This document shows, piece after piece, positions 59,318 through 63,156 of a stretch of 64,000 nt of DNA; the stretch's first letter is position 1, and each line of letters starts with the position of its first letter. The translations under genes and the position numbers were made by a program. This stretch comes from an uncultured Clostridium sp. GTDB lineage: Bacteria > Bacillota > Clostridia > TANB77 > CAG-508. The notes under the pieces were generated by a model that worked only from the letters and a program-made list of their open reading frames with translations, was not told the DNA's origin and searched no databases. The stretch covers positions 12,215-76,214 of the forward strand of contig CABQAZ010000001.1 in NCBI GenBank assembly GCA_902462295.1. The letters run 5' to 3'.

Positions 59318-59556
59318 ATAGTTATAATTGAATTTTTTCAAGAAGCCTTAGAAATATAAGTTTTTCATTACATGTCTCGGTTTACTACAAAATTTAAGAA
59401 ATTCTAATTTATTTTATGGGTCCTTTCCACTATCGTGAACTCTTACCATAAAATTACAAAGAATTTCTAAAATTTTTTCATGCACATTCGCCATTCCATT
59501 CAAAACTTATATTTCTAAGGCTTCTTGATATTAATTTATAATAAACCATTAACCTG
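59318..59556. repeat. About 240-bp palindromic repeat element, copy 1 (nested terminal inverted repeats around a conserved core)
   Basis: Inner inverted repeat ttcaagaagccttagaaatataagttt / aaacttatatttctaaggcttcttgat. The core (about 150 bp) is over 90% identical to the copy at 62914..63156. Confidence 0.7.
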
Positions 59557-59652
59557 TAAAGAAAGAGCTAGAAAGTTCTTTTTTTTTACTTGTAATTTTC
59601 TAAAAAACGGTATATAATAAGCACATCAAAAAGCAAGTACGAGGAGGTAATT

Positions 59653-59940
59653 ATGAAAGTAAGTAGAGAAGAGATATTACACATTGCCAATTTGGCACAA
59701 TTAACACTAGAAGAAGACGAAATAGAAAAATATATGTTACATTTACAAGACATATTAAACTTTGCCAATATAGTAAACAATGCGCCTGTTGATGGATTAG
59801 ATATAACAATAGGTGCAAATGAAGCAAAAAATGTATTTAGAAAAGATGAAATAAAGAGATTTGAAGATGTAGATAGTTTATTAGAAAATGCACCAACACA
59901 AGATCAGCATATGTTTAAACTACCAAAAGTTTTGAATTAG
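59653..59940 (+). CDS. gatC: Glu-tRNA(Gln)/Asp-tRNA(Asn) amidotransferase subunit C
   Basis: 95 aa. MKVSREEILHIANLAQLTLEEDE is typical of GatC. Confidence 0.85.
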   Translation: MKVSREEILHIANLAQLTLEEDEIEKYMLHLQDILNFANIVNNAPVDGLDITIGANEAKNVFRKDEIKRFEDVDSLLENAPTQDQHMFKLPKVLN

Positions 59941-59963
59941 AAATGTAAAAAAGGAGGAAGAAC

Positions 59964-61442
59964 ATGGATATTACAGAATTAACAGTACATGAGTTACAAG
60001 AAAAAATAAAAAACAAAGAATTAACTATAACAGAAATAACAAAAGCTTATGTAGATAGAATAAAAGAAAAAGAACCAGAGGTTCAAGCATTTATAACAGA
60101 ACTTACTGAAGAGGGTATGAAACAAGCTGAAAAAATCCAAGCTAAAATAGATAAAGGAGAAAAAGTTGGGAAATTAGCTGGGATACCAATAGGTATAAAA
60201 GATATAATTTGTACAAAAGGGGTAAAAACAACATGTGCATCTAAAATGCTAGAAAACTTTGTTGCACCATATGATGCAACAGTTATGAACAAAATTAATT
60301 CAGAAGAAATGATTGATTTAGGAAAATTAAATATGGATGAATTTGCAATGGGAGGTTCAACAGAATATTCATATTTTAAGAAAACAAGAAATCCATGGGA
60401 CTTATCAAGAGTACCAGGAGGTTCTTCAGGAGGTTCAGCAGCAGCAGTTGCAGCAAACATGGTGCCATGGGCATTAGGAACAGACACAGGAGGAAGTATT
60501 CGTCAACCAGCATCATTTTGTGGAGTGGTTGGGTTAAAACCAACATATGGACTAGTTTCAAGATATGGTGTAGTTGCATTTGCATCATCACTTGATCAAG
60601 TTGGTGTATTCACAAAAGATGTACAAGACTGTGCAGAATTACTAAATGTTATCGCAGGATATGATGAGATGGATACAACATCAGTAGATGTAGGAACAAA
60701 GGATTATACAAAAGCATTACAAAAAGATATTAAAGGATTAAAAATAGGAATTCCAAAAGAATTCTATGGAGATGGCACAAATCCAGAAGTTAAAACAGCA
60801 TTAGAAAATGCGATTGAAGAATATAAGAAAATGGGAGCAGAAGTAGAAGAATTTTCATTAGACATTGCAAATTATGCATTAGCAACATATTATATAATTG
60901 CATGTGCAGAAGCAAGTTCAAATTTAGGAAGATATGATGGAATAAGATACACATATAGATCACCTGAAGCAAAAACATTGAAAGAAATTTATAAAAAATC
61001 TAGAAGTGAAGCTTTTGGAGCAGAAGTAAAAAGAAGAATTATACTTGGAACATATGTATTATCTTCAGGATATTATGATGCATATTACAAAAAAGCTCAA
61101 CAAGTGCGTACACTTGTAATGAATGAATTTAATAAAGCATTTGAAAAATATGATGTTATAGTAACACCTGTATCTCCAACAACAGCATTTAAGCTAGGAG
61201 AAAGATCAACAAACCCAATGGAAATGTATTTATCAGATATTTGTACAGTTTCTGTAAATATAGCAGGACTTCCAGGAATATCAGTACCTTGTGGAGTAGA
61301 TAGTCAAGGACTTCCAATAGGTATGCAAATTATAGGAAATAAATTTGATGAAGAAACAATTATAAAAACAGCATATGCTTATGAACAAGCAACAAACTTC
61401 CGTGAAAAATATAAACCAACATTTAAAGGAGGTGCACAATAA
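59964..61442 (+). CDS. gatA: Glu-tRNA(Gln) amidotransferase subunit A
   Basis: Amidase signature [13 protein letters not shown] with the Ser-cisSer-Lys triad context. Confidence 0.9.
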
Positions 61443-62881
61443 TGGCAAGAGAGGACTATGAAGTAGTAATGGGCTTAGAAGTTCATGCAGAACTATCAAC
61501 AAACACAAAAATATTCTGTAGTTGTCCAACAAAATTCGGAGCAGAACCAAACACACAAGTATGTCCAATATGTATGGCAATGCCAGGAACATTACCAAAA
61601 TTAAATGAAAAAGTAGTAGAATATGCAGTAAGAGCAGGATTAGCAACAAATTGTGAAATATCAAGAAACAGTAAAAATGATAGAAAAAACTATTTCTACC
61701 CAGATTTACCAAAAGCATATCAAATATCACAATTTGACAAACCACTATGTGAACATGGATATATTGAGATAGAAACAAGTAAAGGAAAGAAAAAAATAGG
61801 AATAACACGTATTCACATAGAAGAAGATGCAGGAAAATTAAACCATGATGATTTTGGAGGAGGAGCATTAGTAGATTTAAACAGAGCTGGTGTACCTTTA
61901 ATAGAAATAGTATCAGAACCAGATTTTCGTTCAATAGAAGAAGTTGATGCATATTTAAAAAAATTAAAATCAATACTTGAATATATAGAAGTATCTGACT
62001 GTAAAATGCAAGAAGGTTCATTTAGAGCAGATGTAAACACATCAATTCGTCCTGTAGGTTCAGAAAAACTTGGAACACGTACAGAAATGAAAAATATGAA
62101 CTCATTTAGAAGTATTACAAGAGCACTTGAATATGAAATAGATAGACAAGTTGATGTTATTGACAATGGTGGAGAAGTTGAACAAGAAACATTAAGATGG
62201 GATGAAGTATCTGGAAGAACATTTTCAATGAGAGATAAAGAAGATGCACAAGATTATAGATATTTTCCAGAGCCAGATTTAGTTGCAATAAAACTATCAG
62301 AAGAATATATAGAAAATATTAAAAATAGTTTACCAGAAATGCCAGAAAGCAGAAAACAAAGATATTTAACAGAATATAAATTATCAGAAAAAGATGCAGG
62401 AATTATAACATCATCAAAATATTTATCAGATTTATTCGAAAAAGCTTCTGAAATTTGTGGTAATTATAAAGCTGTAAATAACTGGATAATATCAGATATT
62501 TCAAGAATTTTAAATGAAACTGAAATGGACCCAATCGAAATACCATTTGATGCTAATCAACTAGCCAAATTAGTTGAATTAATAGACAAAGGAACAATTA
62601 GTTCAAGCATTGGTAAAAAAGTATTAACAGAATTATTTGAAAATCCAAGAGACCCAGAAGATATTATTAAAGAAAAAGGATGGATTCAAATTTCTGATGA
62701 GGGTGCAATAAAAGAAGTTGTAACAAAAATAATTGAAGAAAATCCTCAATCAGTTGCAGACTATAAGGCAGGAAAAGATAGAGCATTAGGATTTTTAGTT
62801 GGACAGGCTATGAAAGAAACTAAGGGAAAAGCTAATCCACAAATGCTTAATAAAATGTTTGCGGAGGAGTTAAAAAAATAG
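61442..62881 (+). CDS. gatB: Glu-tRNA(Gln) amidotransferase subunit B
   Basis: MGLEVHAEL...FCSCPT N-terminus. C-terminal GatB/YqeY domain. Its start overlaps the gatA stop. Confidence 0.9.
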   Translation: MAREDYEVVMGLEVHAELSTNTKIFCSCPTKFGAEPNTQVCPICMAMPGTLPKLNEKVVEYAVRAGLATNCEISRNSKNDRKNYFYPDLPKAYQISQFDKPLCEHGYIEIETSKGKKKIGITRIHIEEDAGKLNHDDFGGGALVDLNRAGVPLIEIVSEPDFRSIEEVDAYLKKLKSILEYIEVSDCKMQEGSFRADVNTSIRPVGSEKLGTRTEMKNMNSFRSITRALEYEIDRQVDVIDNGGEVEQETLRWDEVSGRTFSMRDKEDAQDYRYFPEPDLVAIKLSEEYIENIKNSLPEMPESRKQRYLTEYKLSEKDAGIITSSKYLSDLFEKASEICGNYKAVNNWIISDISRILNETEMDPIEIPFDANQLAKLVELIDKGTISSSIGKKVLTELFENPRDPEDIIKEKGWIQISDEGAIKEVVTKIIEENPQSVADYKAGKDRALGFLVGQAMKETKGKANPQMLNKMFAEELKK

Positions 62882-62884
62882 AAA

Positions 62885-62912
62885 AGAGGGACTATAAAAA
62901 GTCCCTTTTCTA
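62885..62912 (+). terminator. Rho-independent terminator after gatB
   Basis: agagggactataaaaagtccctttt. Confidence 0.65.
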
Positions 62913-62913
62913 A

Positions 62914-63156
62914 AAGATAATGGTTTTGATTATTTTTTTATAGAACCACTTTAAATATAATCTTTTTATTACATTCCTCGGTTTATTACAAAATTTAAAA
63001 AATTCTAATTTGTTTTATGGGTCCTTTCCACTATCGTGAACTCTTACCATAAAACTGCATAGAATTTCTAAAATTTTTTCATACACATTCGTCACTTCAT
63101 TCAAAGCTTATATTTAAAGTGGTTCTATATATTAATTAAAAATAAACCATTATCTT
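62914..63156. repeat. About 240-bp palindromic repeat element, copy 2
   Basis: Outer inverted repeat aagataatggttt / aaaccattatctt. Inner inverted repeat tagaaccactttaaatataa / ttatatttaaagtggttcta. The core is conserved with copy 1. Confidence 0.7.

Follow-up and report, generated by a model that had tools for sequence, protein, structure and literature searches.

Probable non-autonomous transposons with an invertible inner segment, inserted upstream of promoters, in small-genome gut Clostridia

Two palindromic repeats, here called copy A and copy B, flank the gatCAB genes in a 64,000-nt stretch of contig CABQAZ010000001.1; this whole stretch is called the window, and coordinates are counted within it. 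The repeats are probably copies of a non-autonomous DNA transposon, a MITE (miniature inverted-repeat transposable element), of small-genome, AT-rich gut Clostridia, which is mostly inserted upstream of predicted promoters and whose inner segment inverts in place. A profile built from aligned copies gave an element length of 254 bp. Copy A (59307..59560, plus strand; profile positions 5-259, nhmmer E 4e-65) is a full 254-bp element with limits set by the terminal repeats, the target duplication and alignment to an empty site, and copy B (about 62909..63161, plus strand; nhmmer E 3e-64) is about 253 bp long. As a first-pass annotation of this DNA had described, the two copies flank gatC (59653-59940), gatA (59964-61442) and gatB (61442-62881); both point the same way, and 3.6 kb separates them. 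That annotation had given the repeats about 240 bp (59318..59556 and 62914..63156); the element proved longer, extending about 11 bp more to the left and 4 bp more to the right, where it reaches its terminal inverted repeats. The shared core, described there as about 150 bp with over 90% identity, is present and measures about 138 bp at about 90% identity between A and B. A 30-mer in the middle of the core, GGGTCCTTTCCACTATCGTGAACTCTTACC, is exact in both copies and has no third occurrence in the 64-kb window (chance expectation, 0). No open reading frame (ORF) of at least 40 aa was found inside copy A or copy B, and indels between subfamilies disrupt any reading frame.

In an alignment of 50 full copies, similarity extended outward to 15-bp terminal inverted repeats (consensus GTTACTGGTTAATGG), and a terminal repeat consensus of 15-18 bp, GTTACTGGTTAATGGTTT, was found at both ends of 31 full copies (62 ends). 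With a position weight matrix from the 62 element ends and the alignment, the left terminal repeat of A, ATTACTAGTTAATAG, was placed at 59307..59321 (plus strand) and the right one, CCATTAACCTGTAAA, at 59546..59560 (minus strand). The element is flanked by an 8-bp target-site duplication, with matches at seven or more of the eight positions in 15 of 36 distinct loci, compared with 15 of 1260 (1.2%) mismatched flank pairs; the duplicated 8-mers are A+T-rich and have no consensus. For copy A, comparison of the flanks and alignment to the empty site placed the left duplication, GAAAGAAC, at 59299..59306 and the right one, GAAAGAGC, at 59561..59568. An element with such ends would be moved in trans by a DDE-type transposase making 8-bp staggered cuts.

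Mobility was assessed on contigs encoding a GatC protein 100% identical to that of the window, which were compared as two groups. In seven contigs of the window's strain both copies were present, and at the filled site the 254-bp element lies between GAAAGAAC and GAAAGAGC. In L056, L063 and L064, with flanks 91-94% identical, the ldh-gatC spacer is 104 bp long and holds no element; this empty allele reads GCATAAGCAAAATGTAA GAAAGAGC TAGAAAGTTCTTTCTTTTTAC followed by TTGTAA, with a single target 8-mer. The lineage with the empty site carries a copy of its own at another place (L056:3691-3916). The target of copy A is the 5′ arm of a terminator-like hairpin of ldh (59561-59587), and the duplication restores this hairpin downstream of the element; copy A therefore lies before the ldh terminator and must be transcribed with ldh. 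Both copies had been described earlier as standing just past terminators, which holds for copy B, downstream of the gatB terminator hairpin (62887-62906), and not for copy A, inserted inside the 5′ arm of the ldh hairpin. A MITE was among the options raised in the first-pass annotation, and it is supported by the terminal inverted repeats, the 8-bp duplication, the lack of an ORF, the dispersed copies and the empty site in a related strain. An element of the IS200/IS605 palindrome-associated type was another of these options, and a long hairpin-forming sequence without an ORF would suit it, or a REP-like element (repetitive extragenic palindrome), moved by a Y1 (HUH) transposase. Elements of this sort lack terminal inverted repeats and do not duplicate their target, their subterminal hairpins being recognised by the Y1 transposase; the statistically supported terminal inverted repeats and 8-bp duplication found here contradict this origin, which we regard as very improbable.

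The core 30-mer was found at 54 loci in about 10 species-level genome bins among species-representative genomes, the bins being labelled "uncultured Clostridia" of human gut or "Clostridium sp. 28_12", or consisting of one closed 1.55-Mb chromosome. By nhmmer, 63 copies were counted in these 54 loci and the window, all of them intergenic, and 171 copies once the loci of a metagenome scan were added. The latter scan used a looser 21-mer loop pattern and returned 88 loci, at least three of which (L103, L128 and L129) were rejected as chance 21-mer matches in unrelated DNA. A local duplication of the sequence around gatCAB, with the core confined to these two places, would fit two direct copies 3.6 kb apart; the copy-number search that the first-pass annotation had proposed, run across genomes and metagenomes, instead gave more than 150 copies in unrelated contexts, and copy A is missing from a related strain that has gatCAB, so that this explanation retains practically no probability. 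No match to the element was obtained by BLAST in phage or plasmid collections, the core loop had 0 matches in viral contigs, and the loop sequence was found in no published paper in a literature search. Three full copies on the same strand lie within 5 kb at L020:2351-7312, a very high local density. At L038:2217-2480 and L053:5397-5659 an upstream reading frame enters the element by about 20 nt and takes its stop codon from the left arm of the element. Many metagenome contigs terminate inside the element, mostly in the core (L005, L006, L009, L016, L026, L035, L054, L058-L060 and many of L065-L152), and the element accounts for assembly breaks at its sites in small-genome gut Clostridia.

From the outside inward, the element begins with the terminal repeat and an arm, which is either of kind X (TTTTGATAAAATTTTC) or of kind Y (TTTATTTTAAATTAATA); these are followed by the inner inverted repeat, which measures about 27 bp and reads, for instance, AAGAAATCCTTGAAATATAAGCTTT, then by a block without pairing (CATTACATTCCTCGGCTTATTAC) and a long hairpin with a 26-nt loop; after the hairpin, the second half comprises a second unpaired block (CTCCATGCACATTCGTCATTTCATTC), the inner repeat, an arm of the other kind and the terminal repeat. 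Copies A and B both have the arrangement X..Y′. The inner repeats of A lie at 59339..59364 (plus strand, CAAGAAGCCTTAGAAATATAAGTTTT; repeat analysis and alignment) and 59502..59527 (minus strand; repeat analysis and alignment), and those of B, located by sequence and alignment, at 62940..62965 (plus strand, ATAGAACCACTTTAAATATAATCTTT) and 63103..63128 (minus strand). The central core hairpin of A (59389..59476, plus strand) has 31-nt arms at 59389-59419 and 59446-59476 around a conserved, asymmetric 26-nt loop at 59420-59445, and was delimited by repeat analysis, folds and compensatory changes from G-C to A-T and from T-A to C-G. Repeat analysis of copy A thus bore out the nested inverted repeats noted earlier, with outer arms of 43 nt (84% complementary) and inner arms of 31 nt around the loop. 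As single-stranded DNA, copy A folds with -42.3 kcal/mol, compared with -14.5 ± 3.1 in shuffles (z = -9.1).

Inversion of the inner segment was recognised from the order of the arms. Each copy that could be classified clearly has one arm of either kind, and pairs of like arms were hardly seen. With the copies oriented by the core, 16 loci had X to the left and Y to the right and 9 had the opposite order, and the arrangements X..Y′ and Y..X′ coexist within single genomes. Among orthologous groups, defined as copies sharing both flanks, 13 of 24 contained both orientations, and the inverting segment is about 190 bp long and bounded by the inner repeats. Three cases were checked by eye, with end-points taken from asymmetric markers. 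At one orthologous locus (L050 compared with L053, L038 and L018), the flanks and outer arms are collinear, and the approximately 185 bp between AAAGACTTAAAATATAATTATA and its inverted partner are reverse-complemented. Clean in-place inversions were found between L136 and L152, with flanks 99.9% identical, and between L034:1417 and L151:1750, with flanks 99.8% identical. Because inversion breakpoints at orthologous loci elsewhere fall in the inner repeat, the left inner repeat of A is taken as a boundary of the invertible segment. Mapping of the end-points by alignment of one allele to the reverse complement of the other failed, since the palindromic parts align either way. Of 43 pairs whose flanks were at least 99.5% identical, 5 were inverted, compared with 10 of 15 pairs with flanks 70-90% identical. 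In eight assemblies of the window's strain a single orientation was present at both loci. After insertion, the central segment of about 190 bp inverts in place between the inner repeats.

The inner repeats match within a copy and differ between copies. Those of A are GCCTTAGAAATATAAG and CTTATATTTCTAAGGC, and those of B are CCACTTTAAATATAAT and CTTATATTTAAAGTGG; the six positions that had been noted as different between the copies yet self-complementary within each follow a pattern that holds in all 31 full copies, in which variable positions of the inner repeat are 30-50% identical between copies, whereas the two arms of one copy are 90-100% complementary. In the terminal repeat, variable positions show no within-copy matching of that kind. 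In 58 cores, 98% of cells were paired in the proposed structure, and 17 pairs had double changes, compared with 5.2 ± 1.0 in shuffles; single-step wobble states were rare, G-U being no commoner than A-C, and both strands of the core fold equally well. Structure-preserving double changes, for which the first-pass annotation had proposed a test, were found, and a strand-specific wobble bias was not. That annotation had read the compensatory changes as selection for a long stem. Since the matching is confined to the inner repeat, exactly the one bounding the inverting segment, recombination between the arms (concerted evolution) explains it better than selection on an RNA stem; it is the economical reading of the compensatory changes, and stem selection is probably wrong in mechanism. 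Such recombination would keep the inner repeats identical within a copy while they drift between copies. Copy-specific perfect inverted repeats in any palindromic repeat can stem from DNA recombination, and, if this holds, RNA covariation tests would have to be read with this caveat.

The same data bear on a structured RNA, whether a small RNA (the remaining option of the first-pass annotation), a 3′-untranslated-region element or a leader element, in which RNA-folding selection would keep the stems. The paired cells and compensatory pairs given above would suit such an RNA, as would the conserved unpaired blocks beside covarying stems and the transcription of copy A with ldh, whose terminator is downstream. 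Palindromes kept by DNA recombination yield the same covariation signal, however, and neither the like folding of both strands nor the G-U frequency favours an RNA. The element has no terminator of its own and no convincing promoter of its own; in copy A no G+C-rich stem with a T-run was found. Neighbouring genes may lie on either side of the core's orientation, since the core is found both ways round next to them, and it flips in place, so that it has no fixed transcript context. No Rfam match was obtained at gathering or permissive thresholds, the best E-values of 0.4-3 belonging to unrelated families; the earlier statement that the element is neither a T-box nor a known riboswitch agrees with the lack of any family at the gathering score. 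A structured RNA is accordingly an improbable explanation.

The position of insertions is non-random relative to promoters, in either orientation of the element. Right flanks often hold TTGACA-like and TGnTATAAT-like boxes at a constant offset. At the 36 distinct loci, 72 outward-facing promoter-like sites were counted within 105 nt of an element end, and 24 of them start 27-30 nt from it. A predicted host promoter of the sigma-70 type, with its -35 box beginning at that distance from one end, accompanies 23 of the 36 elements (0 on both sides). The promoter site stood to the right of the core in 16 cases and to the left in 7, and the arm beside it was Y in 11 and X in 9, without association. 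The predicted promoters point at genes starting 75-115 nt off. Between the element and the -35 box the sequences are unrelated from locus to locus and rich in A-tracts, and the peak in the spacing spans 4 nt, with hardly any further peak at a distance of one helical turn. At copy A, the -35 box of the predicted gatC promoter (59590..59618, plus strand; TTGTAA, 17-nt spacer, TATAAT) starts 29 nt past the end of the element; this promoter is unchanged in the empty allele and is thus not part of the element.

The same distance is kept by short relatives. A 103-bp relative without most of the core (58141..58243, plus strand), identified from a terminal-repeat matrix pair and its sequence, lies upstream of ldh. 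The predicted promoter of ldh begins 28 nt past it and consists of TTTAAA at 58272-58277, a spacer of 16 nt and TGaTATAAT, which runs to 58299. A 51-bp mini element consisting of two terminal repeats and a linker (48301..48351, plus strand; terminal-repeat matrix) is flanked by the target duplication TTCTTAAT / TTATTAAT (7/8), and a predicted promoter (TTGTTT at 48380, 17-nt spacer, TGgTATTCT) starts 28 nt past its end. The third short relative is a 51-bp element in L051, and all three have a -35 box exactly 28 nt from one end. The 103-bp relative and copy A bracket ldh with family members on both sides, as is the case for gatCAB. The spacing would reflect how targets are chosen: the transposition machinery may pick the upstream edge of the promoter A-tract (UP-element) region, with the edge recognised through DNA geometry or promoter-bound RNA polymerase.

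The fixed spacing could also belong to a cis-regulatory module, in which a regulator, possibly the transposase or one of its relatives, would bind the terminal repeat, whose centre is near -71, and selection after random insertion would have set the distance. It places the 15-bp terminal repeat where, from general knowledge, upstream activator sites typically lie, and the core is conserved beyond the expectation for junk, since about 10 species have the 30-mer without a change. The narrow peak without helical-turn neighbours speaks against a regulator site, as does the same spacing in the 51-bp remnants; the neighbours are unrelated housekeeping genes (ldh, gatC and a moxR-like gene), and in the empty allele the same promoter stands and does without an element. 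We consider this module unlikely.

A further proposal adds to the MITE rather than replacing it, namely that the flipping core is a programmed switch (inverton) in which a site-specific recombinase would turn dozens of transposon-borne copies and so give phase-variable expression of the neighbouring promoter or gene. Inverted repeats bound the segment, which at about 190 bp resembles known switches in size, the inverted repeats are kept perfect, the position is always beside a promoter, and both orientations occur at one locus in near-identical genomes, between samples as well as between genomes. Both window copies also have a weak promoter-like site on the core's minus strand (59401-59429 and 63002-63030; TGGAAA, 17-nt spacer, TAGAAT; 9/12 match); here the conserved loop supplies the -35 box and the site is directed leftward out of the core. 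This internal candidate is, however, not conserved in the second, 490-bp family, where it is degraded to TAGAAA, and no terminator lies within the segment. The element sits upstream of the promoter and not between promoter and gene, the orientation of the core relative to the promoter is only mildly skewed (the 16 and 7 cases above), the eight samples of the window's strain have a single orientation at both loci, and the scan of 20 window ORFs yielded no recombinase. Closely spaced repeats can, moreover, invert spontaneously in replication. A programmed switch is therefore a tentative possibility, held with more doubt than confidence.

The core is shared more widely than the element. A core of about 125 bp is central to several otherwise unrelated palindromic elements of 300-490 bp, and in many metagenome loci only the central 125-170 bp matches the profile. 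One host type of about 490 bp has the ends TGTTACAATTCACCGTCC (L012:2353, within L012:2170-2650; L069, L078, L145 and L146), a second of about 350 bp carries TTACCAGTAGGGACACCC twice in its arms (L085, L105 and L127), and a third contains GGGACATTTGGGGTCGGTTCC repeats (L101 and L130); further types exist, and the core is likewise central in L136/L152. In the second family (about 490 bp) the target duplication was not definable by eye. A second loop type, GGCACCCTTCCACTCTCGTGAACTCTTTCC, accompanies these elements. The conserved parts of the core are the loop motif TTCCAC-N4-GTGAA-CTCTT, CTCGGCT.A.TAC and CACATTCG, and conserved unpaired blocks border the covarying stems. The 51-bp relatives are inserted without the core, which is thus not needed for insertion; the core (hairpin, conserved 26-nt loop and two conserved unpaired blocks) would be a cargo common to this and other palindromic elements. 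A more far-reaching model, which we consider rather unlikely, combines these features: transposon-borne invertible modules would home to about 24-28 bp upstream of ordinary -35 boxes, probably by reading promoter-bound RNA polymerase or UP-element geometry, and then flip the 125-bp core, giving the host dozens of mobile two-state switches beside promoters, in which the core, captured by unrelated transposons, is the selected unit.

Several candidate functions within the core were considered. A 26-codon minus-strand ORF was rejected as a small protein because a 1-nt indel between subfamilies interrupts it. At its top (ATGG...CCATAA; 59414-59449 and 63015-63050) the hairpin contains an 11-codon ORF on both strands, and in the plus-strand frame the differences between loop types are mostly synonymous or conservative (MGPFHYRELLP and MAPFHSRELFP); these ORFs were rejected as coding because no Shine-Dalgarno sequence precedes them. 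On the minus strand at 59487-59493, and at the equivalent place in other copies, the conserved block CATTCGNCA reads TGNCGAA, the Spo0A box consensus, with N varying freely among copies (A, G or T); its occurrence here may be chance. Spo0A is encoded in the window at 26766-27590. In some core-bearing elements the arms contain direct repeats of a G+C-rich 18-mer, which resemble multiple protein-binding sites.

A number of observations weigh against the MITE with promoter-directed insertion and in-place inversion that is preferred here. In the 1.2 Mb of collected loci, no pair of terminal repeats 0.5-4.5 kb apart enclosed an autonomous element, only neighbouring MITEs being found (including the pairs around ldh and gatCAB) and no enclosed ORF being other than a host gene; a scan of viral contigs with the terminal repeat returned singletons at the chance level; and Pfam gave no transposase or recombinase among the 20 ORFs scanned of the 57 window ORFs of at least 110 aa. 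A parent insertion sequence may exist elsewhere in the genomes, the search having covered the collected loci, the viral contigs and the 20 window ORFs. A single empty site was recovered, and copy B has a degenerate left terminal repeat, flanks in which a target duplication can no longer be recognised, and its nearest promoter-like site 18 nt away, an exception to the spacing. The promoters are consensus predictions, and the 28-nt spacing could come from selection after insertion instead of targeting. The sequences are metagenome assemblies, in which orientation calls depend on assembler k-mers spanning the approximately 27-bp repeat; some "inverted" pairs at 70-80% flank identity may be independent insertions, and the pair L096/L099 (99.8% flank identity) was dropped because its left flank differs and the inversion is not clean. 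Finally, a purely selfish element does not explain the strong conservation of the core, since the 51-bp relatives show that the core is dispensable for insertion.

Other features were recorded in the window. The Pfam scan of window ORFs identified a Mob_Pre relaxase ORF (4465-5772, minus strand), which suggests that a mobilisable element is integrated close to the window's start. Upstream of a 613-aa ORF (36196-38037) lies a glmS ribozyme (90 bits; 38080-38232, minus strand), an agr-type quorum-sensing cluster with AgrB, a GHKL histidine kinase and a LytTR response regulator occupies 44630-47611, and tRNA genes are located at 24402-24475 and 24500-24571.

Two features would surprise specialists if confirmed, namely the promoter-distance rule and the in-place flipping of a core common to several elements. 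A fixed promoter distance, if true, would be a way of choosing targets that is new among bacterial transposons, and a natural tool, or a warning, for promoter-adjacent insertion of DNA that does not destroy promoters; no paper on promoter-distance insertion in bacteria was found in a literature search. A transposon carrying an invertible segment would, if true, join the fields of mobile repeats and phase-variable switches, and surveys of invertons in gut metagenomes may then be counting mobile repeats.

Among known systems, Tn7 (TnsD at attTn7) and Ty3 (Pol III start sites) likewise insert at a fixed, narrowly defined distance from a landmark, there a bound protein, and not at a sequence motif, a likeness in behaviour only; unlike in those cases, the landmark here would be an ordinary sigma-70-type promoter, which to our knowledge has not been described as an insertion landmark for any bacterial transposon. 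The Firmicute repeats RUP, BOX and SPRITE of pneumococci and bcr1 of Bacillus cereus are likewise short, non-coding, hairpin-forming and intergenic in low-GC Gram-positive hosts, and by their descriptions they differ from the Clostridia element in sequence, ends and target duplication. RUP duplicates TA and bcr1 duplicates TTTAT, and we know of no promoter-distance rule or internal inversion described for any of the four. Invertons such as Mpi of Bacteroides fragilis and those of RecV of Clostridioides difficile are likewise bounded by inverted repeats, located beside gene starts and present in either orientation, with segments of about 150-300 bp and many sites per genome. Invertons are not known to be transposon-borne repeats with target duplications or to have one conserved core in common; they are tied to a recombinase and usually either contain the promoter or are situated in the leader. 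Closest in behaviour are the Correia repeat-enclosed elements, MITEs of Neisseria, which are about 105-155 bp long with 26-bp terminal repeats, duplicate TA, contain their own promoters and an IHF site, and are said to invert as a whole. Both they and the Clostridia element are small, gene-less, intergenic and multi-copy, have terminal inverted repeats, often lie just upstream of genes and combine alternative end types in one element. In-place inversion of Correia elements has been reported, according to a review (PMC10969869) that cites Elbeyioglu et al. 2017. Unlike the Correia elements, the Clostridia element has an 8-bp duplication and a Clostridium-like host, inverts only its inner segment, bounded by a second and concertedly evolving repeat, stands at a fixed 27-30 nt from a pre-existing host promoter and has a core in common with unrelated elements.

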